Positions 67-36,634 of a stretch of 36,682 bases of DNA are shown piece by piece. The notes under the pieces were generated by a model. That model saw only the letters and a program-made list of their open reading frames with translations. It had not been told where the DNA came from and did no database searches. The stretch is taken from the UHGV virus genome UHGV-1482696. One strand, written 5' to 3'. Made by a program: the position numbers and the translations under genes. This DNA comes from a virus. Each line of letters opens with the position of its first letter. Within the stretch, counting starts at the first letter, position 1.

Positions 67-71
67 GCTGC
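67..71. repeat. Left copy of 5-bp target-site duplication GCTGC
   Basis: GCTGC immediately precedes the phage left terminus TGTATTGATTCAC at 72; an identical pentamer follows the right terminus at 36630-36634. Confidence 0.85.
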
Positions 72-245
72 TGTATTGATTCACGAGAAGTACGAAAAAA
101 CCGGGAGGACATTGGATTATTCGGGATTTGACGGGATTAGATTTGGTGGGGCTTGCAAGCCTGTAGAGCAGATTTTAGTCGTTAAGCCTTGAAACGCGAA
201 AGATTGTTAAAAATGGCTTTTGTTTCATTAAAGATACGAAAAGCA
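72..245 (+). promoter_or_regulatory. attL: attL left transposon end with MuA binding sites L1-L3
   Basis: L1 at about 77-98 (TGATTCACGAGAAGTACGAAAA) matches the MuA end-site consensus; L2-like GAAACGCGAAAG near 190-202 and L3-like TGTTTCATTAAAGATACGAAAA near 220-243. Confidence 0.8.
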
Positions 246-410
246 ATTAATTCACACATCATTTCAATTTATGCTTCAAAAATGCTTCAAATCCGATAAC
301 AACCAGACCTTTGGCAAATGATGCATATCAAAAACAGCTTTTGCCGTTTCGGTATCTTACCCTCTTGGTTACTTGAGGGGAAGTGTGTGTTTTAGCTAGG
401 TTCCTGGTTG

Positions 411-926
411 TTATACGGCTTTTGTTACATCTTGTGGTTCTTGCGAAGGAGCTACAAGACCTTCCTGTTCATGAATACCATGCTCTGACAAAATCTCTTT
501 GCGCTCTTCTGCTGGTAAAGTTTCTAGCATTTGGGCGAGTTGTATGCACTCACGCGATACGCCGTGCAGAGATTGGATTTGAGTCTGATCAAAGATACTT
601 GGCATTAGTGCACTAAGTCCACCTTTGCTAAGTAGCTTTAGTGCCCTCTGGATTTCCTCTGGTTCTAACTCTGCAACCAAAGCCATTAACACAGAAGCTA
701 ACTTATAAGCTGACTTATCGTTATCTAATAACTGCGCCCCTCCTAATTCTGCCTGAGTAGCATCAGGTAATGAGCTAATATGGTATTCATAAGCAACACC
801 TTTTACTCCTTTGATCTGTCTCTTTTTCCATCCCTCATTAGTTGCTTTGCGGCTAATACTACTTGCTGAAGACGGAAGACCAGCAACCCCTTGTAGCTCT
901 TTAGCTGAAAACCATTCTTGTGTCAT
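411..926 (-). CDS. c: Immunity repressor c (D108-like N-terminal DNA-binding domain)
   Basis: Leftward ORF beside operator region; C-terminal half matches Mu repressor ([23 protein letters not shown]); N-terminal domain is homologous to the A N-terminus in this window; start placed at second ATG (926) with GAGG 6 nt upstream, alternative ATG at 956. Confidence 0.85.
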
Positions 927-956
927 CACAAACCTCGCTTTAAATACATCATGCAT

Positions 957-1126
957 TCAAAGAAATAAAAAACATATTCACTTTAAAATCATCGAGATAG
1001 ATGAATTTCAAATAAAATATTTGAATACACTATTGCATTGACAATGTATTCACACTAGCATTGCTGCATACCTTGTCAGCTACCTTGCGGCGTAGCTGAT
1101 GGCGTAGCTTGTGAGGATTGCATTTT
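957..1126. promoter_or_regulatory. Operator/early promoter region between c and ner (divergent Pc and Pe, transpositional enhancer)
   Basis: AT-rich intergenic region between divergent c and ner; repeated GTAGCT-type motifs at 1077-1083 (CAGCTAC), 1092-1098 and 1104-1109 just upstream of ner; position corresponds to Mu O1-O3/IAS. Confidence 0.65.
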
Positions 1127-1345
1127 ATGGCGATAAAGAAAAGTAAATGTGAAGACAAAAGCAGATACGACATTGTTGCTGATCTGCGCAAAAGAGGAAA
1201 AAGCCTAGCAGCTCTTGGTCGTGAGAACGGTCTCTCTATCTCTACGGTAAAAAATGCCTTGGATAAACCTTACCCTCGGGGGGAAAGAATCATTGCCGAT
1301 GCATTGGGAGTTGAGCCACGAGACATTTGGCCTTCGAGGTATTGA
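1127..1345 (+). CDS. ner: Ner-like DNA-binding negative regulator of early transcription
   Basis: 72-aa product [35 protein letters not shown]...IWPSRY with Ner family C-terminus (IWPSRY as in Mu Ner); GAGGA at 1113-1117 precedes ATG 1127 (track start 1118 is TTG). Confidence 0.85.
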
Positions 1346-1347
1346 AA

Positions 1348-3348
1348 ATGCAACCACAATGTAATGATTGGTTTTCTGCAAAGAAATTAGAAGGGCTGAT
1401 AGGTCTTCCAAAATCCTCTAGCGCGATCTCTCGTAAAGCAAGGTTAGAACAGTGGGTGTTTCGACAGATACACGGGGTAAGAGGAGTAGCCTATGAGTTT
1501 CATATCTCATCTTTACCAAAGGAAACACAAGCTGCGTTGTTACTTAGACAAGGAGAGATTGAAACAAGCCAGGGCCGTTTTGAAATCGCCCGCCCCACGC
1601 TGGAAGCCCACGATTACGATCGCGGGGCACTGTGGAGCAAATGGGATAAAGCCAGCGATTCCCAGCGCAGACTTGCTGAAAAATGGTTGCCTGCAGTTCA
1701 GGCCGCAGACGAAATGCTGAACCAGGGTATTTCAACAAAAACGGCTTTTGCGACCGTTGCAGGACATTACCAGGTCAGCGCATCCACTTTGCGAGACAAA
1801 TATTACCAGGTACAGAAGTTTGCGAAGCCTGACTGGGCGGCTGCGCTTGTTGATGGACGTGGTGCATCCCGTCGCAACGTTCACAAAAGTGAATTTGACG
1901 AGGATGCCTGGCAGTTTCTGATTGCAGATTATCTGCGACCGGAAAAACCCGCCTTTCGCAAATGTTATGAGCGTCTGGAACTGGCAGCACGTGAGCATGA
2001 CTGGAATATTCCCTCCCGTGCCACGGCCTTTCGCCGGATTCAGCAACTGGACGAGGCAATGGTTGTTGCCTGCCGTGAAGGTGAACATGCACTGATGCAT
2101 CTGATACCTGCACAGCAGCGAACTGTGGAACACCTGGACGCCATGCAGTGGATCAACGGCGACGGTTATCTGCATAACGTCTTTGTACGCTGGTTTAACG
2201 GTGATGTGATCCGCCCGAAAACATGGTTCTGGCAGGATGTGAAAACCCGAAAAATTCTGGGCTGGCGCTGCGATGTGAGCGAGAACATTGATTCAATTCG
2301 CCTCTCGTTCATGGATGTTGTGACTCGCTACGGTATCCCGGAGGATTTTCACATCACCATTGATAACACCCGTGGTGCAGCGAATAAATGGCTGACGGGA
2401 GGCGCGCCCAATCGCTACCGCTTTAAGGTGAAAGAAGACGATCCAAAGGGGGTGTTTTTACTGATGGGTGCGAAAATGCACTGGACAAGCGTTGTTGCCG
2501 GTAAAGGCTGGGGCCAGGCAAAACCTGTTGAACGTGCTTTCGGTGTTGGTGGGCTTGAGGAATACGTTGATAAGCATCCGGCACTGGCTGGCGCATATAC
2601 GGGGCCTAATCCGCAGGCAAAACCTGATAACTATGGCGACCGCGCTGTTGATGCAGAGCTGTTTCTGAAAACTCTTGCCGAAGGTGTGGCGATGTTCAAT
2701 GCCAGAACAGGCCGTGAAACAGAAATGTGCGGAGGCAAACTTTCGTTTGATGACGTTTTTGAGCGTGAATACGCCAGAACGATTGTGCGTAAGCCTACCG
2801 AAGAGCAAAAACGGATGCTGTTACTGCCTGCCGAGGCAGTGAACGTTTCACGTAAAGGCGAGTTCGCGCTTAAAGTTGGTGGCTCCCTTAAAGGTGCGAA
2901 AAACGTTTATTACAACATGGCGTTAATGAATGCCGGAGTGAAAAAAGTTGTGGTCAGATTTGATCCACAGCAGTTACACAGCACGGTTTATTGCTACACC
3001 CTGGACGGTCGGTTTATCTGTGAAGCGGAATGTCTGGCACCTGTTGCGTTTAATGATGCTGCGGCAGGCCGTGAATATCGCCGCCGCCAGAAACAACTGA
3101 AATCTGCGACGAAAGCAGCAATTAAGGCACAGAAACAAATGGATGCACTGGAAGTGGCAGAGCTGCTGCCGCAGATAGCCGCACCTGAAGCACCAGAATC
3201 ACGAATTGTCGGCATTTTCCGGCCTTCCGGTAATACGGAACGGGTGAAGAATCAGGAGCGTGATGATGAATACGAAACTGAGCGTGATGAATATCTGAAT
3301 CATTCGCTGGATATTCTGGAACAGAACAGACGTAAAAAAGCCATTTAA
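1348..3348 (+). CDS. A: DDE transposase MuA
   Basis: 666-aa product near-identical to Mu A from about residue 65 onward; N-terminal domain differs from Mu (D108-like); ATG 1348 preceded by GAGG; track start 1327 is TTG. Confidence 0.95.
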
Positions 3349-3386
3349 TTAACGTTTAAACAAAATTTAATTACGAGGTTATTCAG

Positions 3387-4325
3387 ATGAATATTTCCGA
3401 TATTCGCGCAGGACTGCGCACGCTTGTAGAAAATGAAGAAACCACTTTTAAACAAATTGCTCTTGAGAGCGGGCTTTCTACCGGAACTATCAGTAGTTTT
3501 ATCAATGATAAGTACAACGGGGATAACGAGCGTGTTTCACAAATTCTGCAACGCTGGCTGGAAAAATATCATGCAGTTGCAGAACTACCTGAACCGCCCC
3601 GCTTTGTGGAAACGCAGACGGTAAAACAAATCTGGACAAGTATGCGTTTTGCCAGCCTGACTGAAAGTATTGCTGTTGTATGTGGCAATCCTGGTGTGGG
3701 CAAAACCGAAGCGGCCCGTGAATATCGCCGCACCAATAACAATGTCTGGATGATCACCATTACGCCATCCTGTGCCAGCGTTCTGGAATGTCTTACTGAA
3801 CTGGCGTTTGAGCTGGGAATGAATGACGCACCCCGCCGTAAAGGGCCGCTCTCCCGCGCCCTGCGACGTCGCCTTGAAGGTACACAGGGGCTGGTTATCA
3901 TCGACGAAGCTGATCATCTTGGTGCCGAAGTTCTGGAAGAACTCCGCCTGTTACAGGAATCAACCCGCACTGGCCTTGTGCTGATGGGAAATCACCGGGT
4001 TTATTCAAATATGACGGGGGGTAACAGAACGGTTGAATTTGCCCGTCTGTTTTCCCGTATTGCAAAGCGCACTGCAATTAATAAAACCAAAAAAGCCGAT
4101 GTAAAAGCTATTGCGGATGCCTGGCAGATTAACGGCGAAAATGAACTGGAGTTATTACAGCAGATTGCGCAGAAACCAGGTGCGCTTCGCATTCTGAATC
4201 ATTCACTTCGCCTTGCCGCCATGACGGCTCACGGTAAAGGTGAGCGTGTTAACGAAGATTATCTGCGTCAGGCTTTCCGTGAATTAGACCTGGACGTTGA
4301 TATTTCAACGCTGCTGCGTAATTAA
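3387..4325 (+). CDS. B: MuB ATP-dependent target DNA activator
   Basis: 312 aa, MNISDIRAGLRTLVENEETTFKQIALESG..., Walker A GNPGVGKT, matches Mu B essentially throughout. Confidence 0.95.
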   Translation: MNISDIRAGLRTLVENEETTFKQIALESGLSTGTISSFINDKYNGDNERVSQILQRWLEKYHAVAELPEPPRFVETQTVKQIWTSMRFASLTESIAVVCGNPGVGKTEAAREYRRTNNNVWMITITPSCASVLECLTELAFELGMNDAPRRKGPLSRALRRRLEGTQGLVIIDEADHLGAEVLEELRLLQESTRTGLVLMGNHRVYSNMTGGNRTVEFARLFSRIAKRTAINKTKKADVKAIADAWQINGENELELLQQIAQKPGALRILNHSLRLAAMTAHGKGERVNEDYLRQAFRELDLDVDISTLLRN

Positions 4326-4340
4326 GAAGGAGAAGAAATT

Positions 4341-4568
4341 ATGATGGCCCGAAATATAAAAATGGCAACGGATGCGCAGAACTGGTTACAGGCGCGCGGG
4401 AGTCATGTAAATGAATCATATCTCGGCGTGGCGCGTCCGATTCTTGATATCACTTACCCACCGGTGGAACTGGTAAAAAACGCGGTCAGAATTATGGAGC
4501 ATAAGTCCGGGGTGGCCCGTTCTGTATGGACGGCCCGTCTTAATGGTTGTCAGATAATCTGGAGATAG
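4341..4568 (+). CDS. kil: Kil host-killing protein
   Basis: First ORF after B, small (75 aa), strong RBS AAGGAGAAG upstream; position and size match Mu kil. Confidence 0.7.
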
Positions 4569-4575
4569 TATTTAA

Positions 4576-4788
4576 ATGATTGTGATAAATATTCACGATA
4601 ATCTGGGAATCAGTAAGTTAATCAACCTTGATAATGTCAGTGTAATGGAAACGACTGTTGAGGGCGGTATTGCTTTTGAATTTATTGATGGTCGCCGGCT
4701 GGTCGTTCATGTCGGCAACCATCATCACGCAGAAGATGTGTTTTGTGAACTTAACAAAATCACAAATGCAACGCCCGTTAATCAATAA
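4576..4788 (+). CDS. Early hypothetical protein
   Basis: 70-aa ORF tightly packed after kil; synteny with Mu semi-essential early region. Confidence 0.5.
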   Translation: MIVINIHDNLGISKLINLDNVSVMETTVEGGIAFEFIDGRRLVVHVGNHHHAEDVFCELNKITNATPVNQ

Positions 4789-4801
4789 GCAGGTAATGAA
4801 A

Positions 4802-5071
4802 ATGGCAAAAGTAATCTTTGAATTTAACAATACAGGGAATATTGAGCTTCAGGAAAATGGAGGTTTTGCCGTAAATATGAATGTGCGACTGGAAGAATCC
4901 TCACCTGAGGACCAGACAGGACCACATGATGTAATGGCAGGCATCATCAAGAGCATGGCTCCTGAAATCATTAAAAAAGCGACCGAGGAGTTGTTGAAAT
5001 CAGCCAGGGAGCTTGGGCTGGAAGCCGAGGGGGAATTATTCAGCTATAACCCGAATGCAGCCAGACATTAA
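4802..5071 (+). CDS. Early hypothetical protein
   Basis: ORF in track 4658..5071 trimmed to ATG 4802 (MAKVIFEF...) which has RBS AGGT 7 nt upstream and does not overlap the preceding gene; alternative ATG 4796. Confidence 0.5.
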   Translation: MAKVIFEFNNTGNIELQENGGFAVNMNVRLEESSPEDQTGPHDVMAGIIKSMAPEIIKKATEELLKSARELGLEAEGELFSYNPNAARH

Positions 5072-6355: not shown

Positions 6356-6452
6356 TACCACCATTAATATTTAATTAATTCACATTCGTTTAATTATGGC
6401 GCGATGCGTCAGGGGACTACTCGCGCCTTAATCAGAACCGGAGAGAATGAAA

Positions 6453-7001
6453 ATGAAAGCATGTGCTTATTTTAAACTGAGTGACGAAGCCGCTAACGGT
6501 TATACGATTCGCTGGCTGAAAGATGTTTCTGTTAAGCGTGGTGAGATTATTGAGTCATTACAGCAATCAGTGAAAGCAATCGGTGTGTCTTTGTCTGGTG
6601 ACAAAGGGCCTGAGAGGGTTACGCATGTCTGGTTTAGCTACTTACCACCGGAAGGATGGGAGATTAAATCAAGGACACTTTTCATTGGTGATATTCAGTT
6701 ATGGGGCGCAATGCCGGATATGACAATACCGGCAGGTCGTGAGTACGGGAAGCTCATCCGGGACTGTGAAAATCAGCTCGAAAAACACCCGGATTTTCAG
6801 CGCTGGCTGTGCAATGAACTTAACGTGGCTACCGACGTTGACCTGTTTGACATCAGGTCCGTGTGGAAAATGCACCACAGCCGTGACGGATTCAGCATTT
6901 TGTTTGCAGTGTACCTTCTGGCTGGCGAAGTGAAGGGACCGGTTCCCGCCGAATGCCAGCGCATTAAACATTCTGAATTTGTGGCGCTGACGGAGGAATA
7001 A
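6453..7001 (+). CDS. Early hypothetical protein
   Basis: ORF 6447..7001 trimmed to ATG 6453 with GGAGAG 7 nt upstream. Confidence 0.55.
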   Translation: MKACAYFKLSDEAANGYTIRWLKDVSVKRGEIIESLQQSVKAIGVSLSGDKGPERVTHVWFSYLPPEGWEIKSRTLFIGDIQLWGAMPDMTIPAGREYGKLIRDCENQLEKHPDFQRWLCNELNVATDVDLFDIRSVWKMHHSRDGFSILFAVYLLAGEVKGPVPAECQRIKHSEFVALTEE

Positions 7002-8161: not shown

Positions 8162-8547
8162 CGGAAGATTTATTTGGTGATTTGCAGGATGACACTATCC
8201 TGGCACATCTTGACAATCCCGCAGAGGATACGTCACGCTTTCCGGCACTGCTGGCGGAGCTGAACGATTTACTACGCGGGGAATTGTCCCGGCTGGGTGT
8301 TGATCCTGCCCATTCACTGGAGATTGTTGTGGCTATCTGTAAGCATCTGGGCGGCGGTCAGGTCTACATTCCACGCGGTCAGGTTCTGGATTCGCTGATT
8401 CGGGATTTGCGTATCTGGAATGATTTCAACGGTCGCAATGTTCACGAACTGGCAATCCGTCATGGTGTGACATTTAACACAGTCTATAAAGCCATCCGAC
8501 GAATGCGGCGTATAAAGTATCGTCAGTATTCCCCCCCTTTGTTTTAA
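8158..8547 (+). CDS. mor: Mor middle-operon transcription activator
   Basis: 129 aa; paralogous to C (shared ...FNGRN...EL....G motif region); overlaps gemA stop (ATGA). Confidence 0.88.
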   Translation: MTEDLFGDLQDDTILAHLDNPAEDTSRFPALLAELNDLLRGELSRLGVDPAHSLEIVVAICKHLGGGQVYIPRGQVLDSLIRDLRIWNDFNGRNVHELAIRHGVTFNTVYKAIRRMRRIKYRQYSPPLF

Positions 8548-8552
8548 ACAGT

Positions 8553-8577
8553 AAAGCCGGTTAATCCGGCTTTTTTT
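8553..8577 (+). terminator. Intrinsic terminator at end of early operon
   Basis: AAAGCCGG-TTAAT-CCGGCTTTTTTT: GC stem 8555-8560/8566-8571 followed by T7 run. Confidence 0.8.
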
Positions 8578-8629
8578 ACGCCCTCAATATTCTGTTGTGA
8601 CGATAAAACGTTCATGACAGGAGGGCAAC
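8578..8629 (+). promoter_or_regulatory. Probable Mor-dependent middle promoter Pm
   Basis: Only intergenic space between mor and the next operon; by Mu synteny the Mor-activated promoter for the C-containing transcript lies directly after the early terminator. Confidence 0.5.
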
Positions 8630-9190
8630 ATGCCTGAGTTTTCCCCTGCATTCCTTCATTCGCTGAATTTCGTTATACGCCCTGATGTTGAAGGTGGCTA
8701 TGTTAATGATCCTGCCGACCGTGGCGGCGAAACGAAATACGGCATTTCTGACCGTCGCGACGGCGTTATTGATGGCAAAACCGATGTTAACGGTGACGGA
8801 AAACCTGATACCCGCATTAAGGATTTAACCCGCGAACAGGCAGCGCAGATCTACTGGCGTGATTACTGGCTGGCGGCAAAGTGTAACGAATGGCCTGATG
8901 GTGTTTCCTTATTCGTCTTTGATGCTGCCGTTCAGCACGGTGTTAAACGCGCGATTCAAATCCTCCAGGCGGCAGCAGGTGTTGATGATGATGGCATCGT
9001 TGGCAAAAACACCCGCGCAGCCGTTCTGCGTGCCGACACTGACTGGCTGCTGTTGCAGTGTTTCCTGCGTCGTTCCCGCTATTACGCAGGGATTATCAAA
9101 TCCAGTGCCTCGCAGGGGAAATATCTGAACGGCTGGTTTAACCGTCTGGATCTGCTCGCCAGCGCCTGCCGGGAGGTTCTGCATGGGTAA
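8630..9190 (+). CDS. GH108-family muramidase-like protein with C-terminal peptidoglycan-binding domain
   Basis: N-terminal motif VEGGYVNDPADRGGETKYGIS typical of glycoside hydrolase family 108 (catalytic Glu in EGGY); C-terminal region resembles PG_binding_3; RBS GGAGGG upstream. Confidence 0.7.
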   Translation: MPEFSPAFLHSLNFVIRPDVEGGYVNDPADRGGETKYGISDRRDGVIDGKTDVNGDGKPDTRIKDLTREQAAQIYWRDYWLAAKCNEWPDGVSLFVFDAAVQHGVKRAIQILQAAAGVDDDGIVGKNTRAAVLRADTDWLLLQCFLRRSRYYAGIIKSSASQGKYLNGWFNRLDLLASACREVLHG

Positions 9191-9401
9191 AGGGTGGGAT
9201 GCGTCCTTTCAGTTCGGCAGGCGCGAACGTTTACGACAGGAGGTATTACATCGGGAGGCCGGAGGCCCGCCACCAAAGCCAATGGATTACACAGGGCACG
9301 ATGGCACCCACGGAAGTTATTACATGAAAGGCTGGCAGTCAGTTGATATGCCGGAAATTCTTCATCATTGCCTGCTTTACAGGGAGAAACATTATGTCTG
9401 A
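9183..9401 (+). CDS. Middle-operon hypothetical protein
   Basis: 72-aa ORF exactly filling the gap, start overlapping upstream stop (ATGGGTAA) and stop overlapping downstream start (ATGTCTGA). Confidence 0.5.
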   Translation: MGKGWDASFQFGRRERLRQEVLHREAGGPPPKPMDYTGHDGTHGSYYMKGWQSVDMPEILHHCLLYREKHYV

Positions 9402-9756
9402 GCGTTCTGCTCGTCAGTGGCCTGATTTTTTATCGGTGGTGTTACTGGCGCTGTTATTGTGGATAAGTCTGTTTTGTGGCTGGCGCGCGCTGATGTTTTG
9501 CTGTGCCTCGGTTTTCAGTGTTGCTTTATGTGTTGCCGCTGATTGTCTGGATGCGCTGATAATGAGCTGCCGGGTGCCTGAACATTTTGCCCGGTTCGTC
9601 TGGCCTCTGACCTGGCTGGGGAGTCTGTCCGGGCTGGGATTAGCCGTGATGGCAACGTCTCAACTGAAAACGGGTCCTGAGCATGTCATCTGGGCGCTGG
9701 CCGGATTGCTGACGTTCTGGCTCTCCTTTCGTTTTCGCGCTCGTCTGTTCGGGTAA
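9394..9756 (+). CDS. Middle-operon integral membrane protein
   Basis: ORF 9343..9756 trimmed to ATG 9394 (AGGGAG upstream); 120 aa with three to four hydrophobic helices (VVLLALLLWISLFCGW, VFSVALCVAADCL, LTWLGSLSGLGLAVMA, VIWALAGLLTFWL). Confidence 0.6.
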   Translation: MSERSARQWPDFLSVVLLALLLWISLFCGWRALMFCCASVFSVALCVAADCLDALIMSCRVPEHFARFVWPLTWLGSLSGLGLAVMATSQLKTGPEHVIWALAGLLTFWLSFRFRARLFG

Positions 9757-10411: not shown

Positions 10412-10930
10412 ATGATGGCGGGGATACCAAAAAAACTGAAAGCCGCACTGCTGGCGGTAACGATTGCCGGTGGCGGTGTGGGTGGTTATCAGGAAATGAC
10501 CCGTCAGTCTCTGATCCATCTGGAAAATATCGCTTATCTGCCTTACCGCGATATTGCCGGTGTGCTTACGGTCTGTGTGGGACATACCGGGCCGGATATC
10601 GAAATGCGCCGTTACAGCCATGCGGAGTGTATGGCTCTCCTCGACAGTGATTTAAAACCGGTTTATGCGGTAATCGATCGTCTTGTCAGGGTGCCGCTGA
10701 CGCCATATCAGAAAACGGCGCTGGCAACGTTTATTTTCAACACCGGTGTTACCGCATTCAGTAAATCAACGCTGCTGAAAAAACTCAATGCCGGTGATTA
10801 CGCCGGAGCGCGTGACCAGATGGCCCGCTGGGTGTTTGCCGCAGGCCATAAATGGAAAGGACTGATGAACCGTCGCGAAGTGGAAATGGCAATCTGGAAT
10901 ATCAGGGGGGCGGATGACCTTCGCCAGTAA
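10412..10930 (+). CDS. lys: SAR endolysin (T4-lysozyme-like muramidase with signal-arrest-release N-terminus)
   Basis: 172 aa; weakly hydrophobic Gly/Ala-rich N-terminal segment LKAALLAVTIAGGGVGGY then catalytic E...D...T triad (ENIAYLPYRDIAGVLTVCVGHTG); matches Mu Lys. Confidence 0.92.
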   Translation: MMAGIPKKLKAALLAVTIAGGGVGGYQEMTRQSLIHLENIAYLPYRDIAGVLTVCVGHTGPDIEMRRYSHAECMALLDSDLKPVYAVIDRLVRVPLTPYQKTALATFIFNTGVTAFSKSTLLKKLNAGDYAGARDQMARWVFAAGHKWKGLMNRREVEMAIWNIRGADDLRQ

Positions 10931-14489: not shown

Positions 14490-16027
14490 TGGGCCGTATT
14501 CTGGATATTTCCGGGCAGCCGTTTGATTTTGACGATGAAATGCAGACCCGCAGTGATGAGCTGGCAATGGTCATGAAGCGCACGCAGGAGCATCCTTCCA
14601 GTGGTGTGACGCCGAACCGGGCCGCGCAGATGCTGCGTGATGCCGAACGCGGTGATCTGACAGCACAGGCTGACCTGGCCTTTGATATGGAAGAAAAGGA
14701 CACCCACCTTTTTTCCGAACTGAGCAAACGCCGCCTTGCCATTCAGGCGCTGGAATGGCGCATCGCTCCGGCACGTGATGCCAGCGCACAGGAGAAAAAA
14801 GACGCAGACATGCTGAATGAATATCTGCATGATGCGGCGTGGTTTGAAGATGCCCTGTTTGATGCCGGTGATGCCATTCTCAAGGGCTATTCCATGCAGG
14901 AGATTGAATGGGGCTGGCTGGGGAAAATGCGCGTGCCGGTGGCGCTGCATCATCGCGATCCGGCGCTGTTCTGCGCGAACCCCGACAATCTGAACGAATT
15001 ACGCCTGCGTGATGCGTCTTGGCACGGGCTGGAGCTGCAACCGTTCGGCTGGTTTATGCACCGGGCCAAATCCCGCACCGGGTATGTCGGCACCAATGGC
15101 CTTGTGCGCACGCTTATCTGGCCTTTTATTTTTAAAAACTATTCCGTGCGTGATTTTGCAGAGTTTCTGGAAATTTACGGACTCCCCATGCGCGTCGGTA
15201 AATATCCGACCGGCTCAACGAATCGCGAGAAAGCCACGCTGATGCAGGCCGTGATGGATATCGGGCGACGTGCCGGTGGCATTATTCCGATGGGGATGAC
15301 GCTGGATTTTCAGAGCGCCGCAGATGGTCAGTCAGACCCTTTTATGGCGATGATTGGCTGGGCAGAAAAAGCGATTTCAAAAGCCATTCTGGGCGGCACC
15401 CTGACCACAGAGGCTGGCGATAAAGGTGCGCGGTCGCTGGGTGAAGTGCATGATGAGGTTCGCCGGGAAATCCGTAACGCGGATGTGGGCCAGCTTGCCC
15501 GCAGTATTAACCGTGACCTGATTTATCCCCTGCTGGCACTGAACAGTGACAGCACCATTGATATTAACCGCCTGCCTGGCATTGTATTTGATACCAGTGA
15601 AGCGGGTGATATTACGGCACTGTCTGACGCCATTCCGAAACTGGCGGCGGGAATGCGTATTCCGGTCTCCTGGATACAGGAAAAACTCCATATTCCGCAG
15701 CCGGTCGGTGATGAAGCCGTGTTTACTGCTCAACCGGTCGTCATGGATAACGGTCCGCAGAAAGAGGCTGCATTATCCGCTGAAGATATCCCGCAGGAGG
15801 ATGATATCGACCGGATGGGCGTCTCACCGGAAGACTGGCAGCGTTCGGTTGATCCCCTGCTGAAACCCGTCATTTTTTCTGTGCTGAAAGATGGCCCGGA
15901 AGCCGCCATGAACAAAGCCGCTTCATTATATCCGCAGATGGATGATGCAGAACTTATCGACATGCTGACCCGTGCCATTTTTGTTGCCGATATATGGGGG
16001 CGTCTGGATGCCGCAGCAGACCATTGA
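14489..16027 (+). CDS. H: Portal protein
   Basis: 512 aa following terminase; start overlaps terminase stop (TAATG). Confidence 0.85.
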   Translation: MGRILDISGQPFDFDDEMQTRSDELAMVMKRTQEHPSSGVTPNRAAQMLRDAERGDLTAQADLAFDMEEKDTHLFSELSKRRLAIQALEWRIAPARDASAQEKKDADMLNEYLHDAAWFEDALFDAGDAILKGYSMQEIEWGWLGKMRVPVALHHRDPALFCANPDNLNELRLRDASWHGLELQPFGWFMHRAKSRTGYVGTNGLVRTLIWPFIFKNYSVRDFAEFLEIYGLPMRVGKYPTGSTNREKATLMQAVMDIGRRAGGIIPMGMTLDFQSAADGQSDPFMAMIGWAEKAISKAILGGTLTTEAGDKGARSLGEVHDEVRREIRNADVGQLARSINRDLIYPLLALNSDSTIDINRLPGIVFDTSEAGDITALSDAIPKLAAGMRIPVSWIQEKLHIPQPVGDEAVFTAQPVVMDNGPQKEAALSAEDIPQEDDIDRMGVSPEDWQRSVDPLLKPVIFSVLKDGPEAAMNKAASLYPQMDDAELIDMLTRAIFVADIWGRLDAAADH

Positions 16028-16892: not shown

Positions 16893-16944
16893 ACGTCTGG
16901 CGAAATCACGCCGGGCCGGACATGAGGTCCGTGCGCTGGGGTTT

Positions 16945-17789: not shown

Positions 17790-17985
17790 ACGGAATCAGA
17801 CGTGAAATCAGCTGCACAGATTTTTTAAAACGCGCCACGGGATTTTTAAACCGGTATTTAACGGTGTATGAATCCCGTTTTATCTTCCTTCCACTTTCTT
17901 TCTCCAGTACTCAAATAGCATAACCCCAGATTTTCCCGCACCTCCCGCAAACTGACTGCTCACAAACCATGATGAGCAGCAGGAC
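17790..17985 (+). promoter_or_regulatory. G-I intergenic region: expected location of the central strong gyrase site and the late promoter PI
   Basis: Only sizeable non-coding stretch in the head region, near the midpoint of the prophage; contains a 7-bp inverted repeat CGGGATT (17838-17844) / AATCCCG (17871-17877). Confidence 0.5.
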
Positions 17986-24060: not shown

Positions 24061-26121
24061 ATGACCGGGAAACGCTTAAAGGCGTCTGTCATTATTGATC
24101 TTAATGGCAATCTTTCCCGGCGTTCCCGCCAGTATTCGAACCAGATAAACGCCCTGTCCCGTAGCGGGCAAAGTTCCCTTCGTGCCCTGCGTATGGAGGT
24201 TGTGCGCGTTTCTGGTGCCATTGACAGAATGGGTTCACTGTCAACCCGTACATTCCGAATGCTGTCAGCCGGGGCGCTGGGTATCGCTGGTGTGGGTTAC
24301 ACCGCCAATAAACTGTTTATTGGTGCAGCCGCCCAGCGTGAGCAGCAAATTATCGCCATGAACTCGCTGTATCACGGCGATAAGGTCAGAGCGCAGGCCA
24401 TGATGGCCTGGGCAAAGCAGAACGCGAAGGACACCACGTGGGGGCTGAGTGGTGTTCTTGATGAGATCCGTTCGTCGAAAGGCTTCGGCATGACGGATGA
24501 ACAGACGAAACAGTTCATCACCATGTTGCAGGATCAGGGGGCCATGCACGGCTGGGATTTACCCACTGCACAGGGTGCCTCACTGCAACTGAAACAGATG
24601 TTTGCCCGCCAGCAAATCACAGCGGCGGATGCCAACCTGCTGACCGGTTACGGTATCAACGTTTATCAGGCGCTGGCGGATGCAACGGGAACGGACGTTA
24701 AAAAAATCCGTGATCTGGGTACAAAGGGCAAGCTGGGCATGAAATCCATTCTGACGGTATTCAGAACGCTGTCAGAACAGTCAAAAGGTGCACAGGCCAG
24801 TGCGATGAACTCCTGGGACGGGATGTTCGCCCAGATGGAAGCCAACCTGCTTGAATTTCGCATAAAGGTGGCAAACAGCGGCCCCTTTGAAGAAATCAAG
24901 AACGAGATGCGCCGGGTGCTTAACTGGCACGACATGGCGGATAAATCCGGGGAACTTGACGCCCTGGCAGAAAACATTGGTCAGAAATTTCTGACCACGT
25001 TCAGAACGGTAAAAATCGCGGCGCAGGAATTATGGCGCTGGCTGAAACCGGGTAAAGATGCGCTGGCATGGGTTGACCAGAATATTGTCAGCCTGAAAAA
25101 ACTGGCTGCTGTTCTGGTGTCTGTCTGGCTTGCCAATAAAGCCCTGAGAGCAGGCTGGGCCGTGGCAAAACCCTCATGGCAGGTTGCCAGTTATCCGTTT
25201 AAAACCGGGCGTCGTATGTGGCGCTGGATGCGAAACCGCAAACGTGGGCAGGCAGGTCTGCCGGTCCCGGATGCCATGACGTCTGAGACGCTGTTGCAGG
25301 GTATCGGCATTCAGCGTGTGTTTGTCATCAACTGGCCCCGTGGATTTGGTGGCTACGGGAGTGGCGGACGGAGCGGCGGAAGAATGGCACCGCTGTTACC
25401 CCGCCAGCCGTTATTGCTGTCCGGGCCACAGCCGCTGGCATTACCTGCACCACGCCCTGTACTGGCATTACCCCCACCCGGCGTACCGGTAACAGCACGG
25501 CCTGCACCATTACCTTTACCCGGTAAATCCGGTCTTCTGAGCAGGCTTGCAGGCAGTGCTGCCGGGCAACTGGTTACGGGAACGGTCGGAAAGCTGGCTG
25601 ATGCCGGGCGTGCTGTTGGCGGGTGGTTTTCCGGTATCGGAAACAAACTTGCAGGCAGTGCGATCGGTCGGGTTGTGACAAAAGGGGCCGGGGCGCTGGG
25701 CTGGATGGGAAAAGGTGCCGGTCGTGCGTTGTCACGTCTGGGTGGCCCGGTAATGGGGGCACTCCAGCTTGCCCCCGTCCTGATGGATGAGCAGGCGTCA
25801 ACCCATGAAAAAGCAGGCGCAATTGGCAGTACAGCCGGTGCATGGCTCGGCGGTGCCGTTGGCAGCCTTGCCGGACCGCTGGGTACGGTTGCCGGTGCCA
25901 CGCTGGGCAGTGTCGCCGGGGAGTATCTGGGCGGTTTTGTAACCGACCTGTATCAGAAATGGACGGCCCCGGATAAGGAACCGCAGGAACAAAAAGTGAA
26001 TGCGGAAGCCTCGCTGCGCGTCGAACTTGGCGAGGGGTTACGTCTGGCCAGTTCCCGTGTCACCGAGGATGGTATGGGGCTGAATATTTATGCGGGCGAT
26101 AACTACATTACAGGCTGGTAA
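24061..26121 (+). CDS. Y: Tail tape measure protein Y
   Basis: 686 aa; Gly/Ala/Pro-rich low-complexity C-terminal half with glycine-zipper-like repeats; position after chaperone. Confidence 0.88.
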   Translation: MTGKRLKASVIIDLNGNLSRRSRQYSNQINALSRSGQSSLRALRMEVVRVSGAIDRMGSLSTRTFRMLSAGALGIAGVGYTANKLFIGAAAQREQQIIAMNSLYHGDKVRAQAMMAWAKQNAKDTTWGLSGVLDEIRSSKGFGMTDEQTKQFITMLQDQGAMHGWDLPTAQGASLQLKQMFARQQITAADANLLTGYGINVYQALADATGTDVKKIRDLGTKGKLGMKSILTVFRTLSEQSKGAQASAMNSWDGMFAQMEANLLEFRIKVANSGPFEEIKNEMRRVLNWHDMADKSGELDALAENIGQKFLTTFRTVKIAAQELWRWLKPGKDALAWVDQNIVSLKKLAAVLVSVWLANKALRAGWAVAKPSWQVASYPFKTGRRMWRWMRNRKRGQAGLPVPDAMTSETLLQGIGIQRVFVINWPRGFGGYGSGGRSGGRMAPLLPRQPLLLSGPQPLALPAPRPVLALPPPGVPVTARPAPLPLPGKSGLLSRLAGSAAGQLVTGTVGKLADAGRAVGGWFSGIGNKLAGSAIGRVVTKGAGALGWMGKGAGRALSRLGGPVMGALQLAPVLMDEQASTHEKAGAIGSTAGAWLGGAVGSLAGPLGTVAGATLGSVAGEYLGGFVTDLYQKWTAPDKEPQEQKVNAEASLRVELGEGLRLASSRVTEDGMGLNIYAGDNYITGW

Positions 26122-30842: not shown

Positions 30843-31375
30843 CACCCTATCAGACGGCCTTTCTGCAATTACTGCCGTCAGGGCTTGCCTGGAATAAAAG
30901 CCCCGACAGCAAATTATCTGCGCTGGCGCAGGCCATCAGCGACGTGATTGCCACTGCGGCGGATGATGCGCGGCAAATGCTGCGGGAGCGTTTCCCGTCC
31001 ACATCCCGCTGGTATCTGGGGGAGTGGGAATCATTTCTGGGGTTGCCGGACTGTACCAGCGAAAACGGCACCCTGTCCGAACGCCAGCGGGCTGCCGCGA
31101 ATAAAATGCGTATGACCGGCAATCTGAGTCGGCGCTTTTATGAATGGCTGGCTGCGCAGTACGGTTTTACCGTCAGGCTGACGGATTCCACAGAAGGCCA
31201 GTGGGTTACGCAGGTCAATATTTACGGTATTAAAAATTATCGCAACGCAACGGTGCTGGATAATGTTCTGACGCCGTTACGTGTTTATGAATCGGGTGCG
31301 CTGGAATGTTTACTGGAGAAATATAAACCCGCGCATCAGATTTATAAATTTGTTTACCATGACGGAGATAACTAA
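30833..31375 (+). CDS. R: Baseplate / tail-fibre attachment protein R (Mu gp48-like)
   Basis: 180 aa; overlaps W stop. Confidence 0.8.
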   Translation: MAVTPYQTAFLQLLPSGLAWNKSPDSKLSALAQAISDVIATAADDARQMLRERFPSTSRWYLGEWESFLGLPDCTSENGTLSERQRAAANKMRMTGNLSRRFYEWLAAQYGFTVRLTDSTEGQWVTQVNIYGIKNYRNATVLDNVLTPLRVYESGALECLLEKYKPAHQIYKFVYHDGDN

Positions 31376-32883
31376 TGTTTTATATTGATAACGACAGCGG
31401 CGTAACCGTCATGCCGCCCGTATCCGCCCAGCGTAGTGCTATCGTTCGCTGGTTTTCAGAAGGTGACGGGAATAATGTTATCACATGGCCCGGCATGGAC
31501 TGGTTTAATATTGTGCAGGCGGAGTTATTAAACACGCTGGAAGAAGCCGGTATTCAACCGGATAAAACAAAATTAAACCAGCTTGCACTGTCCATTAAAG
31601 CCATTATGAGCAATAACGCGCTGCTGATAAAAAATAACCTCAGCGAAATTAAAACTGCCGGGGCATCAGCACAGCGTACAGCACGTGAAAATCTGGATAT
31701 CTATGATGCCAGCCTGAACAAAAAAGGACTCGTTCAGCTAACCAGTGCCACTGACAGCCCCAGTGAAACGCTGGCAGCCACCGCAAAAGCGGTGAAAATT
31801 GCGATGGATAATGCCAGTGCCCGTCTGGCAAAAGACCGGAACGGAGCAGATATTCCCAATAAGCCGCTGTTTATCCAAAACCTCGGTTTACAGGAAACGG
31901 TAAACAAGGCTGGTAACGCCGTCCAAAAGACAGGCGATATCTTGTCCGGTGGGCTTACTTTTGAAAACGACTCAATCCTTGCCTGGATTCGGAATACTGA
32001 CTGGGCAAAGATTGGTTTTAAAAATGATGCCGACAGCGATACTGATTCATACATGTGGTTTGAAACAGGCGACAACGGCAATGAATATTTCAAATGGAGA
32101 AGCCGCCAGAGCACCACAACAAAAGACCTGATGAATCTTAAATGGGATGCTTTGTATGTTCTTGTTAAAGCTCTTTTCAGCAGTGAAGTAAAAATATCGA
32201 CAGTCAATGCACTGAGGATATTTAATTCATCTTTTGGTGCTATTTTTCGCCGTTCTGAAGAATGTCTTCATATCATCCCTACCCGAGAAAATGAGGGGGA
32301 AAATGGCGATATAGGGCCACTACGCCCCTTTACGCTTAATCTCAGAACTGGTCGCATAACTATGGGGCATGGTCTGGATGTTACAGGAGATATATTTGCA
32401 AACCGTTTTTTAATTAACAGCAGTACAGGCATGTGGATTCATATGCGTGACCAGAACGTTATTATGGGACGTAATGCGGTATCCACTGATGGTGCTCAGG
32501 CTTTGCTCCGTCAGGACCATGCCGACCGCAAATTTATGATTGGCGGTCTGGGAAATAAGCAATTTGGCATCTACATGATTAATAATTCAAGGACAGCCAA
32601 TGGCACCGATGGTCAGGCGTACATGGATAATAACGGGAACTGGCTTTGCGGCTCGCAAGTTATTCCCGGCAACTATGGCAATTTTGACTCACGCTATGTG
32701 AGAGATGTCCGACTTGGCACACGTGTTGTTCAATTGATGGCGCGTGGAGGACGTTATGAAATAGCCGGACACGCACTTACTGGATTAAGAATTATTGGCG
32801 AAGTTGATGGCGATGATGAAGCTATTTTCAGGCCGATACAAAAATACATCAATGGCATATGGTATAACGTCGCACAGGTGTAA
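31375..32883 (+). CDS. S: Tail fibre protein S (constant part Sc fused to variable part Sv, G(+) orientation)
   Basis: 502 aa; reading frame passes through gixL at 31871-31904 (..ADIPNKPLFIQNLGLQETVNK..). Confidence 0.9.
   Translation: MFYIDNDSGVTVMPPVSAQRSAIVRWFSEGDGNNVITWPGMDWFNIVQAELLNTLEEAGIQPDKTKLNQLALSIKAIMSNNALLIKNNLSEIKTAGASAQRTARENLDIYDASLNKKGLVQLTSATDSPSETLAATAKAVKIAMDNASARLAKDRNGADIPNKPLFIQNLGLQETVNKAGNAVQKTGDILSGGLTFENDSILAWIRNTDWAKIGFKNDADSDTDSYMWFETGDNGNEYFKWRSRQSTTTKDLMNLKWDALYVLVKALFSSEVKISTVNALRIFNSSFGAIFRRSEECLHIIPTRENEGENGDIGPLRPFTLNLRTGRITMGHGLDVTGDIFANRFLINSSTGMWIHMRDQNVIMGRNAVSTDGAQALLRQDHADRKFMIGGLGNKQFGIYMINNSRTANGTDGQAYMDNNGNWLCGSQVIPGNYGNFDSRYVRDVRLGTRVVQLMARGGRYEIAGHALTGLRIIGEVDGDDEAIFRPIQKYINGIWYNVAQV
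31871..31904. repeat. gixL recombination site (left inverted repeat of G segment)
   Basis: TTATCCAAAACCTCGGTTTACAGGAAACGGTAAA; inverted copy at 34916-34949 with one mismatch. Confidence 0.9.
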
Positions 32884-32886
32884 ATC

Positions 32887-33976: not shown

Positions 33977-33978
33977 CG

Positions 33979-34915
33979 TTAAATACTCCCCGCGTTATAC
34001 CACGTCCCATTAATGCAATACTGAATTGGCCTTGCCTGTGTTGTATCAATTAATTCATCACGGTTTCCGTTAACTGAACCCGTAACGACATAACCTGACC
34101 TGTCAGACCAGCCGGGACCATTCCATGTCTGAACAGATGACAGACCGCCAAGGCGAATACCTGTAATAAACCTTGAGTTACATTCTGCCCGCGTATATGC
34201 ACCAACATCTCCCGCAGAGGGTTTGCGGGTTGTGGTGTAAAACTCTGACCAGTCAGCTTCAAAGCCATAACCATCACGCGCTGAACGATAAAAGATTCCG
34301 CCATTTCTGTAATTCACGCGGAACTGTACAGCAGGGCAACTCCCCGCATTCATATTAAAGTGGAGGATTAATGTCGATGCACCACTGATATCTGCATCAT
34401 AAACGCCGCTATTCCAGTTCCAGCCAACAGCTTTATCATTTGCAACCCTGCTTCCTGTTTGCCCTAAAGCAAATGCAGGCTGCTGATTTTTCGTGTTGTA
34501 GTCTCGTCGCCAGCCAGGAGAATAACCATCACCATGATTAATATAAGTGAATTGAGCGTTAGTAGTTCCGCCACCGCTGGACGTGCTCGGCGTGGTAACG
34601 CGTATGGTCATTGCGCCGCGGGTTCCCATAACCTCAATCACGGCTCCGGCAAGGCAGATATTTCCACAACCGGTATCCGTAATAACCCTGTTTCTGGCAT
34701 AGGACCATGACCCTTTACACATCCAGTATGGATGTCGGAAAGCTCCGTTATTCTCCAGCCACGAGATAAATGCAACTGTCGACCATTCACCTTGTGAACC
34801 ATCGATATCAGTCTGACCGCTAAATGCACGACAGGCCCCTGTGTTTTGTATGAATTTATCTTTATTCGGAATATCTGCACCGTTCTGGTTTTTCTGCAAT
34901 GCGCCAGAAGCCTGA
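33979..34915 (-). CDS. S': Alternative tail-fibre variable segment S'v (no own start; expressed only after G inversion as Sc-S'v fusion)
   Basis: Minus-strand frame is open from gixR to the stop at 33979 and is in frame with Sc across the gix site (..QETVNQASGALQKNQNGADIPNK..); track start 34899 is TTG, no ATG or RBS. Confidence 0.8.
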
Positions 34916-34949
34916 TTTACCGTTTCCTGTAAACCGAGGTTTTAGATAA
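34916..34949. repeat. gixR recombination site (right inverted repeat of G segment)
   Basis: TTTACCGTTTCCTGTAAACCGAGGTTTTAGATAA = reverse complement of gixL with a single G/A difference. Confidence 0.9.
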
Positions 34950-35003
34950 TGGCCGTTTCCGGCCTGCATGGCATGATTTGCGCTTTTGGACGGGAGATTC
35001 AGC

Positions 35004-35597
35004 GTGCTGATTGGCTATGTAAGGGTATCAACAAATGACCAGAATACAGACCTGCAACGAAACGCTCTTGTTTGTGCAGGATGTGAACAAATATTTGAAG
35101 ATAAATTAAGCGGGACAAAGACAGACCGACCGGGATTAAAACGCGCTTTAAAGCGCCTTCAAAAAGGTGACACGCTGGTTGTCTGGAAACTGGATCGCCT
35201 CGGGCGAAGCATGAAACATTTGATTTCTCTCGTAGGGGAATTACGAGAGCGAGGGATTAATTTTCGCAGTCTTACTGACAGTATTGATACGTCATCTCCA
35301 ATGGGGCGTTTTTTCTTCCACGTTATGGGTGCCCTGGCTGAAATGGAACGAGAACTAATCATCGAGCGAACGATGGCTGGACTTGCTGCCGCCAGAAATA
35401 AAGGCCGTATCGGTGGGCGACCACCTAAACTAACCAAAGCGGAATGGGAGCAGGCCGGGCGTTTATTAGCACAAGGAATCCCCCGCAAGCAGGTCGCATT
35501 GATCTACGATGTGGCCCTGTCAACGCTGTATAAAAAACACCCCGCCAAACGAACGCATATAGAAAACGACGATCGAATCAATCAAATCGATCGGTAA
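35004..35597 (+). CDS. gin: Gin serine recombinase (G-segment DNA invertase)
   Basis: LIGYVRVSTNDQNTDLQRNAL... resolvase/invertase catalytic domain with active-site Ser and C-terminal HTH; likely GTG start 35004 with GGGAG 7 nt upstream (track start 34986 is TTG). Confidence 0.93.
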   Translation: MLIGYVRVSTNDQNTDLQRNALVCAGCEQIFEDKLSGTKTDRPGLKRALKRLQKGDTLVVWKLDRLGRSMKHLISLVGELRERGINFRSLTDSIDTSSPMGRFFFHVMGALAEMERELIIERTMAGLAAARNKGRIGGRPPKLTKAEWEQAGRLLAQGIPRKQVALIYDVALSTLYKKHPAKRTHIENDDRINQIDR

Positions 35598-35679
35598 TAC
35601 AGATCGATTATGCCCCAATAACCACACTCAACCCACGATGTTTTTTAAGATAGTGGCGAATTGATGCAAAGGAGGTGAA
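35571..35679 (+). promoter_or_regulatory. mom operon control region: three Dam GATC sites, T6-containing promoter Pmom
   Basis: GATC at 35571-35574, 35589-35592 and 35602-35605 (overlapping the gin 3-prime end); T6 run at 35641-35646 upstream of the com RBS GGAGG. Confidence 0.75.
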
Positions 35680-35868
35680 ATGAAATCAATTCGCTGTAAA
35701 AACTGCAACAAACTGTTATTTAAGGCGGATTCCTTTGATCACATTGAAATCAGGTGTCCGCGTTGCAAACGTCACATCATAATGCTGAATGCCTGCGAGC
35801 ATCCCACGGAGAAACATTGTGGGAAAAGAGAAAAAATCACGCATTCTGACGAAACCGTGCGTTATTGA
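35680..35868 (+). CDS. com: Com zinc-finger translational activator of mom
   Basis: 62 aa [34 protein letters not shown]: C-x2-C ... C-x2-C zinc ribbon; overlaps mom. Confidence 0.92.
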
Positions 35869-36514
35869 GTATGAAGGCCAGATTGTTGGCTATGGTTCAA
35901 AGGAGCTGCGCGTTGAAACCATATCCTGCTGGCTGGCCCGCACAATTATTCAGACAAAGCACTATTCCCGCCGTTTTGTGAATAACTCTTACCTCCACCT
36001 GGGAGTATTCAGCGGACGCGATCTGGTTGGCGTTCTCCAGTGGGGATATGCCCTTAACCCCAACTCAGGTCGTCGTGTCGTGCTTGAAACGGATAACCGG
36101 GGCTATATGGAGTTGAACCGCATGTGGCTACACGATGACATGCCCCGCAACTCTGAATCACGGGCCATCAGTTATGCACTGAAAACCATCAGGTTACTGT
36201 ATCCGTCAGTGGAGTGGGTTCAGTCCTTTGCAGACGAACGCTGCGGACGCGCAGGCGTTGTGTATCAGGCGTCGAATTTTGATTTTATTGGCAGTCATGA
36301 AAGTACATTCTACGAGCTGGATGGTGAGTGGTATCACGAGATAACGATGAACGCGATTAAGCGAGGTGGACAACGAGGCGTGTATTTACGGGCTAATAAA
36401 GAGCGTGCCGTGGTGCACAAATTTAATCAGTATCGCTACATCAGATTCCTGAACAAGCGAGCAAGGAAGCGGCTAAATACCAAACTATTCAAGGTTCAGC
36501 CATACCCTAAGTGA
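35819..36514 (+). CDS. mom: Mom DNA modification enzyme (adenine N6 carbamoylmethyl-type modification, anti-restriction)
   Basis: ORF open 35789..36514; start uncertain between ATG 35789 and in-frame GTG 35819; product with acyltransferase-like core, last gene before attR as in Mu. Confidence 0.85.
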
Positions 36515-36534
36515 TCCCCATGTAATGAATAAAA

Positions 36535-36560
36535 AGCAGTAATTAATACTGCTGTTTCAT
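36535..36560 (+). terminator. Hairpin terminator after mom
   Basis: AGCAGTA-ATTAA-TACTGCT stem followed by GTTTCATTT. Confidence 0.55.
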
Positions 36561-36629
36561 TTGAAGCGCGAAAGCTAAAGTTTTCGCATTTATCGTGAAA
36601 CGCTTTCGCGTTTTTCGTGCGCCGCTTCA
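36555..36629 (+). promoter_or_regulatory. attR: attR right transposon end with MuA binding sites R1-R3
   Basis: Three tandem CGAAA-containing MuA-type sites (GAAGCGCGAAAGC.., TTTTCGCATTTATCGTGAAACGC, TTTCGCGTTTTTCGTGCGCCGCTTCA) ending in terminal CA at 36629. Confidence 0.8.
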
Positions 36630-36634
36630 GCTGC
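36630..36634. repeat. Right copy of 5-bp target-site duplication GCTGC
   Basis: Identical to 67-71; immediately follows terminal CA of the phage right end. Confidence 0.85.

Follow-up and report, generated by a model that had tools for sequence, protein, structure and literature searches.

A mosaic Mu-like prophage bounded by a five-base-pair target duplication within fsr of an apparent Escherichia coli/Shigella-type host

Overview

The stretch of DNA analysed here (the window, 36,682 nucleotides) carries a Mu-like temperate transposable phage (Muvirus) which, with very little doubt, became integrated in the middle of the fsr gene of an E. coli/Shigella-type host by MuA transposition. Its ends, the target duplication, the rebuilt empty site, the MuA-binding sites and the scattered insertion sites of its relatives agree on this point, and they bear out the first-pass annotation, which had proposed a transpositional insertion and not a site-specific integration. 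The biology is that of ordinary textbook Mu, cleanly resolved. The element provides a clean natural example of Mu transposition, found in a metagenome and resolved to the base, of little significance beyond bookkeeping, and one more mosaic for the limited collection of Muvirus genomes from E. coli; the knockout of fsr and the frameshift in the head gene F, both discussed below, are strain-level details. The coordinates of all features are collected in Table 1.

Table 1. Features of the window, with positions, strand and the evidence on which each is based
Feature	Position	Strand	Evidence
Host DNA from codon 247 of fsr onward (nt 740-810), left GCTGC included	1-71	-	rebuilt site against fsr
Target-site duplication, left copy GCTGC	67-71	.	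read directly
Mu-like prophage, 36,558 bp, 5'-TG...CA-3', collinear with Mu	72-36629	+	nucleotide alignment and Mu proteins
MuA-binding site L1	82-98	+	0 mismatches to consensus
MuA-binding site L2	186-202	+	consensus match
MuA-binding site L3	226-242	+	consensus match
c repressor, third immunity type	411-956	-	HTH_Tnp_Mu_1; 94.5% identity to PhiR68_1
ner-like early repressor	1118-1345	+	HTH_35; 50% identity to Mu Ner
MuA transposase, intact	1327-3348	+	Pfam domains and alignment; 93% identical to Mu A
MuB target-capture ATPase (AAA+), adjoining A	3387-4325	+	99% identical to Mu B across the full 312 aa
Extra gene, GH108 + PG_binding_3 peptidoglycan hydrolase, between mor and gp18	8630-9190	+	domain search
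Minor head protein gene F/gp30, cut short at 294 aa	16008-16892	+	compared with 439 aa in Mu
Rest of F (MuF_C region), out of frame, as a separate ORF of 125 codons	16945-17322	+	comparison with Mu F; domains
Central intergenic region with the Mu strong gyrase site	17790-17985	+	alignment; annotation of the Mu record
Invertible G segment	31871-34949	.	inverted gix repeats, 31871-31928 and 34892-34949
gin DNA invertase	35004-35597	+	98% identical to Mu Gin
com and mom (DNA modification)	35680-36514	+	100% and 99.6% identical to Mu
MuA-binding site R3, inverted	36558-36574	+	consensus match
MuA-binding site R2	36581-36597	-	consensus match
MuA-binding site R1	36603-36619	-	consensus match
Target-site duplication, right copy GCTGC	36630-36634	.	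read directly
Host DNA as far as codon 248 of fsr (nt 692-744)	36630-36682	-	match to fsr

The Interrupted Host Gene

Removal of the element together with one GCTGC copy restores the host site, as had been proposed: the two flanks, joined with a single GCTGC, form a 119-bp sequence that is contiguous in fsr at 100% identity and corresponds to nt 692-810 of the gene in E. coli UMNK88 and in thousands of other genomes. The unoccupied site is abundant, being held once (at 80% coverage or more) by 5,410 of the 5,426 complete E. coli genomes, in many of them at 100% identity. Two given 5-mers match by chance with a probability of about 1/1024; the rebuilt contiguous site is decisive for the reality of the duplication. 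Neither occupied junction, and no Mu-type element at the fsr site, was found in the 5,426 complete genomes; a search of IMG/VR and of the GTDB species representatives with the left occupied junction gave 0 matches, as did a search of the JGI metagenome contigs with the right one, in which the window's own contig was also not returned.

The interrupted locus, fsr, is a fosmidomycin-resistance MFS efflux gene of 406 codons located on the minus strand of the window; it and the early genes of the phage run in opposite directions. Its expected neighbours in the chromosome are ybaL on one side and ushA on the other. The duplicated pentamer is fsr nt 740-744, within codons 247-248, which places the insertion in the middle of the gene and not, as initially suggested, at the 5' end of one. 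The ATG in ATGGCGAGC... was rejected as a gene start, because the frame continues open upstream of it and codons 232-270 of fsr match the sequence; it is the internal codon Met243. The fsr frame that leaves the right flank enters an in-frame TGA made by the terminal bases of the phage, and Fsr is cut after Ser248, from which it follows that the transporter would almost certainly be inactivated. As the window comprises one entire metagenome contig, ending 71 and 53 bp past the phage ends, the host was identified from 119 bp only; these bases point to E. coli or a Shigella-type relative, with the linkage to the chromosome presumed. The case shows that about 120 bp of flank is enough to determine both the host and the insertion site of such contigs.

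Ends of the Element and Register of the Duplication

Both ends can be read directly from the window. On the left, GCTGC is followed by the element start TGTATTGATTCAC at 72-84, of which 72-73 are the terminal TG, and on the right the element end GCCGCTTCA at 36621-36629, closing with CA at 36628-36629, is followed by the second GCTGC; the Mu-type termini and the base-exact duplication reported on first pass are thereby confirmed. The direct repeat is in fact 8 bp long when coincident bases are counted (AGCTGCTG, 66-73 and 36629-36636): the host A at 66 is the same base as the terminal A of the phage, and the host TG at 36635-36636 repeats its terminal TG. Because of these coincidences the sequence alone allows the 5-bp duplication to be placed in four registers. 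The GCTGC register, with ends at 72 and 36629, was chosen on the basis of the ends of the phage records and of 15 other insertions that diverge past GCCGCTTCA. The alignments of the Mu, D108 and SfMu records begin with base 1 of each record at window position 72, and those of Mu and SfMu reach the last base of the record at 36629; phage homology beyond either position, which would have spoken against the proposed boundaries, is absent. An 8-bp duplication and the other registers were rejected on this comparative definition of the ends, which includes the duplication around the prophage of NZ_LR882057.1 described below.

Transposition Machinery

Seven matches to the MuA-binding consensus YMYNWRAARYRCGAAAR (at most one mismatch) were found against 0.38 expected, and six of the seven are located within 172 bp of the ends. 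There are three sites per end in the Mu layout, with L1 near the tip, L2 and L3 further in, and R1-R3 contiguous. The transposase contains the Pfam domains DDE_2 (E = 2.8e-136), HTH_Tnp_Mu_1, HTH_Tnp_Mu_2 and Mu-transpos_C; its N-terminal operator/enhancer-binding domain diverges from that of Mu A, and the blocks containing the catalytic D-D-E residues, at what we take to be their positions in Mu A, are identical to Mu. Judged in this way the transposition machinery looks intact. Following the established biochemistry of Mu, a MuA tetramer would have assembled on both ends and exposed the 3'-OH of each terminal CA, the exposed 3'-OHs would have been joined to phosphates staggered by 5 bp in a target captured by MuB, and repair of the two 5-nt gaps by the host would have generated the 5-bp duplication. 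Lysogeny would be maintained by the c repressor of the PhiR68_1 type.

Gene Content and Mosaic Structure

A tblastn inventory with 54 Mu proteins recovered 48, arranged as in Mu, of which 45 show 90-100% identity. The overall architecture of Mu is present: c, ner, A and B, the semi-essential early region, mor, C, the lysis, head and tail genes, the G segment with gin, and com and mom. In the G segment S and U lie on the plus strand and S' and U' on the minus strand, which is the G(+) orientation. The region of the gyrase site has a mean column identity of 99% with Mu and D108. The gene of the GH108 hydrolase is absent from both of these phages, and the c repressor is only 39-46% identical to those of Mu, D108 and SfMu. 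The element is a mosaic that combines PhiR68_1-type immunity, late genes of the Mu/D108 kind and a GH108 module, and its closest phages by nucleotide comparison are PhiR68_1, D108 and Mu (about 96-97% identity over 89-99% of the query).

The best overall phage match is PhiR68_1 (PV340575.1), with 91% and 99% coverage at about 97% identity and a repressor of the same type (94.5% identity). It does not contain the GH108 module in the form found here, giving only a partial match across 8400-9450, and it is the genome of an isolated phage with no insertion in fsr. Mu itself (NC_000929.1 / AF083977.1) has the same TG...CA ends, gene order and 5-bp duplication, a right end that agrees down to its last base, and the same L1-L3/R1-R3 layout, gyrase-site region and G segment; protein identity is mostly 93-100% for its late genes and for B, gam, C, lys, gin, com and mom. 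It differs in the immunity region, where c is 46% identical (local tblastn), ner 50%, and the N-terminus of A divergent; the left 330 bp of the element are about 83% identical to the Mu-type left ends found in E. coli genomes. Moreover, Mu gp6, gp7 and gp12-15 are replaced in the element, the GH108 gene is additional, the S tail-fibre protein is 79% identical, and F is frameshifted. D108 (NC_013594.1), a heteroimmune sibling of Mu, follows the same mosaic logic, with a different c, ner and A N-terminus and common late genes. It shares about 97% nucleotide identity over 90-97% of the query, but its repressor is only 39% identical to that of the element and it carries gene 56, absent here, between mom and the right end.

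Two further relatives each share one part of the element. The prophage located in fic of E. coli 2014-01-7375 (NZ_LR882057.1) is 94% identical over window positions 70-4570, which comprise the left end, c, ner, A and B, and 100% identical over the left 330 bp, whereas its late region is that of another Mu-like lineage, one more distantly related, and its host site is another one. Conversely, the Yersinia phages vB_YpM_5 and vB_YpM_6 (MT374853, MT374854) have the same mor-GH108-gp18 module (97.6% identity) and a late region about 98% identical, but the match starts only at window position 3256, and neither the left end nor the immunity region is shared.

The Frameshifted Head Gene and the Present State of the Prophage

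The earlier description of the element as a full-length prophage stands for its size (36,558 bp, against 36,717 bp in Mu) and gene order; it needs qualifying at F, whose frameshift means that the prophage may not be intact. The frameshift results from a 5-bp deletion (TCAGC) between 16870 and 16871, which splits the gene into an ORF with the Phage_Mu_F domain and a separate MuF_C ORF. The same deletion allele is found in ENA ERZ1314608 NODE_927, a contig 99.94% identical to the window over 20.9 kb, and its presence in two assemblies indicates a real allele. Owing to this frameshift the prophage may be defective: with such a private deletion in F it would probably still transpose and may not form infectious particles, and the production of virions is doubtful.

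This raises the question of whether the element is a decayed, immobile remnant rather than the recent insertion of a working element, a reading that we take seriously while leaning against it. It draws on the frameshifting deletion in an essential head gene and on the occurrence of the allele in NODE_927, which suggests that the prophage has persisted by vertical descent in a host lineage. Against it, 47 of the 48 genes with Mu counterparts are full length, F being the exception, and have no internal gaps other than in-frame ones; no damage is seen in the ends, the MuA sites, A, B or the gyrase site; and the perfect duplication, together with the absence of the insertion from all 5,426 complete genomes, indicates a young event. 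Decay concerns the present state of the prophage, not its arrival, and is compatible with transposition as the mode of insertion. Another view of the real split-F allele, which we consider improbable, is that it marks a viable Mu variant, or a prophage kept by the host for functions apart from the making of virions, such as transposition, Mom or the lysin, the loss of fsr perhaps being selected and not neutral.

Origin of the Flanks and Insertion Sites of Related Elements

Packaged Mu DNA carries host DNA at both ends, and the contig stops shortly past both phage ends; it could therefore be asked whether the flanks are random host DNA packaged in a virion, or an assembler chimera, with a coincidental 5-bp identity. 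This is very unlikely. Packaged flanks stem from many sites and would be adjacent only if derived from one insertion, whereas here removal of one GCTGC joins the flanks seamlessly in fsr, at 100% identity over 119 bp, as expected of one insertion in situ, and the chance of a 5-mer match combined with a rebuilt contiguous gene is negligible. The shortness of the flanks is probably better explained by branching of the assembly graph where fsr alleles with and without the insertion, or further strains of E. coli, coexist.

That a phage integrase inserted the element site-specifically, using a conserved att site in fsr with GCTGC or AGCTGCTG as its core, is scarcely credible: the 8-bp repeat and a serine recombinase gene could be cited in its favour, but the recombinase is Gin, the only site-specific one found, which lies beside its own gix-bounded G segment and acts on that segment, not in integration; no tyrosine or other integrase was detected among the Mu-collinear genes or the scanned non-Mu ORFs; no Mu-type element occupies the fsr site in the complete E. 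coli genomes; and relatives with identical ends are found at 15 or more unrelated loci, with no conserved attB common to independent lysogens, as the site differs in every relative examined.

The insertion sites of these relatives are in keeping with transposition. In all 15 other genomes whose Mom or S protein is identical, the sequence is invariant through ...GCCGCTTCA and unrelated from the next base, in 15 different host neighbourhoods. A look-up with the S tail-fibre protein contributed five independent insertion sites, and in complete genomes the left end was matched in fic, torS, malG, mhpC and other loci; the related prophage in fic of NZ_LR882057.1 has its own perfect 5-bp duplication, GTGGC. 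Mu is known to recognise a 5-bp target with a preference for CYSRG, which is about 7-fold and not a requirement (PMC7350765). The flanking pentamers of 12 of the 15 other insertions fit N-Y-S-R-N. When GCTGC is set against N-Y-(G/C)-R-N or CYSRG, only the Y and R at positions 2 and 4 fit, and the central T is not G/C, a departure from the approximately 7-fold preference. The same pentamer, GCTGC, is used at a different locus by another genome (L016).

Insertion Site and Duplication

The host gene interrupted by the Mu-like prophage is fsr, and the first-pass annotation was right both in its observation and in its central interpretation. The rebuilt empty site (1-71 joined to 36635-36682; 119 bp, one copy of GCTGC kept) was compared by megablast with 5,426 complete E. 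coli genomes, where it is single per genome, is covered over at least 80% of its length in 5,410 and in many is full-length at 100% identity. The BLAST search proposed earlier thus found it unoccupied in those 5,410 genomes and named the locus, the annotation over the matches always being 'fsr: fosmidomycin MFS transporter'. The 1,221-nt fsr of E. coli UMNK88 is flanked by ybaL and ushA. It lies on the minus strand of the window, and the duplicated GCTGC corresponds to its nt 740-744 (codons 247-248 of 406). The suggestion that the 5' end of a host gene had been hit does not hold: the presumed start ATG is an in-frame internal Met243, upstream of which the frame is open and matches Fsr, so the insertion lies mid-gene. 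With the phage in place, the frame of Fsr runs through ...M-A-S-I-S-S into a TGA, which the terminal phage bases contribute as their complement (36627-36637, minus strand). Since this stop follows codon 248 directly and in frame, truncated Fsr ends at residue 248 with no phage-encoded tail.

Among the complete E. coli genomes, searches with window 1-400 and 36300-36682 revealed no occupied junction, left or right; the best matches cover the phage part only and are sited in other genes. Junction searches of three public collections (IMG/VR, GTDB species representatives, and JGI metagenome contigs) gave no match, and the window's own contig was likewise not returned. The window is the entire contig Ga0495776_127086 of JGI metagenome 3300045988, which reaches 71 bp past the left phage end and 53 bp past the right. 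Such short flanks suggest branching of the assembly graph where phage-free fsr sequence coexists with the occupied allele.

Read directly, the window has GCTGC at 67-71, TGTATTGATTCAC starting at 72, GCCGCTTCA ending at 36629, and GCTGC again at 36630-36634, so that the repeats abut both termini exactly as first described. The direct repeat in full is 8 bp long, AGCTGCTG, at 66-73 and 36629-36636: host A66 is the same base as the last of the phage, and host TG at 36635-36636 the same as its first two. Because of these coincidences the window by itself permits four registers of a 5-bp duplication. The register is fixed at 72/36629 by the phage records, as base 1 of Mu, D108, and SfMu aligns at 72 and the last base of Mu and SfMu at 36629, and by insertions in 15 other bacterial genomes, chosen as encoding an identical Mom or S protein, in all of which the sequence is constant up to and including ...GCCGCTTCA and bears no relation from the very next position.

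Transposition Machinery and Target Choice

In phage-database searches, Escherichia phages PhiR68_1, D108, and Mu match 89-99% of the query at 96-97% nucleotide identity. Of 54 annotated Mu proteins, 48 were located by tblastn, in Mu order, 45 of them at 90-100% identity; these include B (99%), Gam (100%), sheath (100%), Gin (98%), Com (100%), and Mom (99.6%), as well as C, Lys, terminase, portal, and baseplate proteins. The MuA transposase is full length and 93% identical to that of Mu, with the DDE_2, both Mu DNA-binding, and C-terminal domains; in the catalytic blocks the two transposases are identical. The published MuA-site consensus, with at most one mismatch, has seven matches against 0.38 expected, six of which form the classic L1-L3/R1-R3 pattern. 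The intergenic region with the strong gyrase site of Mu is 99% conserved. No integrase was found among the Mu-collinear genes or the non-Mu ORFs scanned, the sole recombinase being Gin.

Features of the prophage (window positions)
Feature	Position	Remark
MuA site L1	82-98	consensus match
MuA site L2	186-202	consensus match
MuA site L3	226-242	consensus match
GH108 + PG_binding_3 peptidoglycan-hydrolase gene	8630-9190	between mor and gp18
Mu-type lysozyme gene	10415-10927	additional to the GH108 gene
Gene F/gp30, minor head protein	16008-17322	split by 5-bp deletion
Tape-measure gene	24061-26121	686 aa vs 690 aa in Mu; in-frame 12-nt indel
gix-type inverted repeats bounding the G segment	31871-31928, 34892-34949	G(+) orientation
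MuA site R3	36558-36574	consensus match, inverted
MuA site R2	36581-36597	consensus match
MuA site R1	36603-36619	consensus match

Almost all E. coli have an unoccupied fsr site, and the relatives are found at unrelated ones; a perfect 5-bp duplication of another sequence, GTGGC, flanks the related prophage of NZ_LR882057.1, located in fic. Together with the ends, the duplication, and the intact transposition genes and sites, this bears out a Mu-type transpositional insertion rather than a site-specific one. By analogy with established Mu biochemistry (general background and PMC7350765), MuA bound to both ends would attach the 3'-OH groups of the termini to target phosphates with a 5-bp stagger, and gap repair would then produce the 5-bp duplication. 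The preference of Mu for the target pentamer CYSRG / N-Y-S-R-N is about 7-fold and not absolute (PMC7350765). GCTGC agrees with it at Y and R only; 12 of the 15 other insertion sites fit N-Y-S-R-N. The same non-consensus GCTGC stands beside the right end of an independent Mu-like insertion in GCA_014052185.1 (positions 3842-3846 of locus L016), which adjoins multidrug-resistance (Multi_Drug_Res family) genes, a locus different from fsr.

Frameshift in Gene F

The description of the prophage as full-length is correct as to size (36,558 bp vs 36,717 bp in Mu) but needs qualifying as to intactness, since the head gene F is frameshifted. In the tblastn result, 16008-16871 corresponds to Mu residues 1-288, and residues 290-439 fall in a different frame, at 16870-17319. 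When the segment is aligned to the Mu and D108 sequences, five bases (TCAGC) prove to be deleted between 16870 and 16871. The first product, of 294 aa, retains the Phage_Mu_F domain, and the second piece forms an ORF of its own, 125 codons long, that matches MuF_C weakly. The five bases are present in every one of the 41 complete E. coli genomes carrying the F segment. An exact-protein look-up found the truncated F also in contig NODE_927 of ENA ERZ1314608, which shares 20.9 kb with the window at 99.94% identity and differs there in just one mismatch and the 12-nt indel in the tape-measure gene. With the same allele in this second assembly the deletion is probably real, although the two assemblies may not be independent. 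The prophage may therefore be unable to make heads.

Mosaic Modules

Nothing in the element is without precedent in Mu, D108, PhiR68_1, or related prophages. Its c repressor shares 94.5% identity with the PhiR68_1 repressor and only 39-46% with the Mu, D108, and SfMu repressors; Ner shares 50% with its Mu counterpart, and A departs from Mu A over its first ~60 residues. Divergence of c, Ner, and the start of A is the known heteroimmunity pattern of Mu versus D108, and judged by its sequence the immunity region (72-1400: left end, c, ner, and start of A) represents a third type besides those of Mu and D108. The prophage of E. coli NZ_LR882057.1 matches window 70-4570 at 94% identity, with the left 330 bp 100% identical, while its late genes come from a different Mu-like lineage; such comparisons indicate that the immunity cassette is swapped as a module.

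For Mu gp6, gp7, and gp12-15, tblastn with the Mu proteins found no match in the window. Their positions (4576-5071 and 6447-7001) are taken by ORFs whose only matches are to PHROG families without assigned function (phrog_3375, 2230, and 2260), a replacement typical of the variability of the semi-essential early region. Yersinia phages vB_YpM_5 and vB_YpM_6 share the GH108 + PG_binding_3 module; the two lysin genes of the element sit in different operons. In the variable parts of the tail fibres, S and S' (31375-32883 and 33979-34962) are 79% and 87% identical to Mu, respectively. Many draft genomes of E. coli encode an identical S protein, at differing insertion sites.
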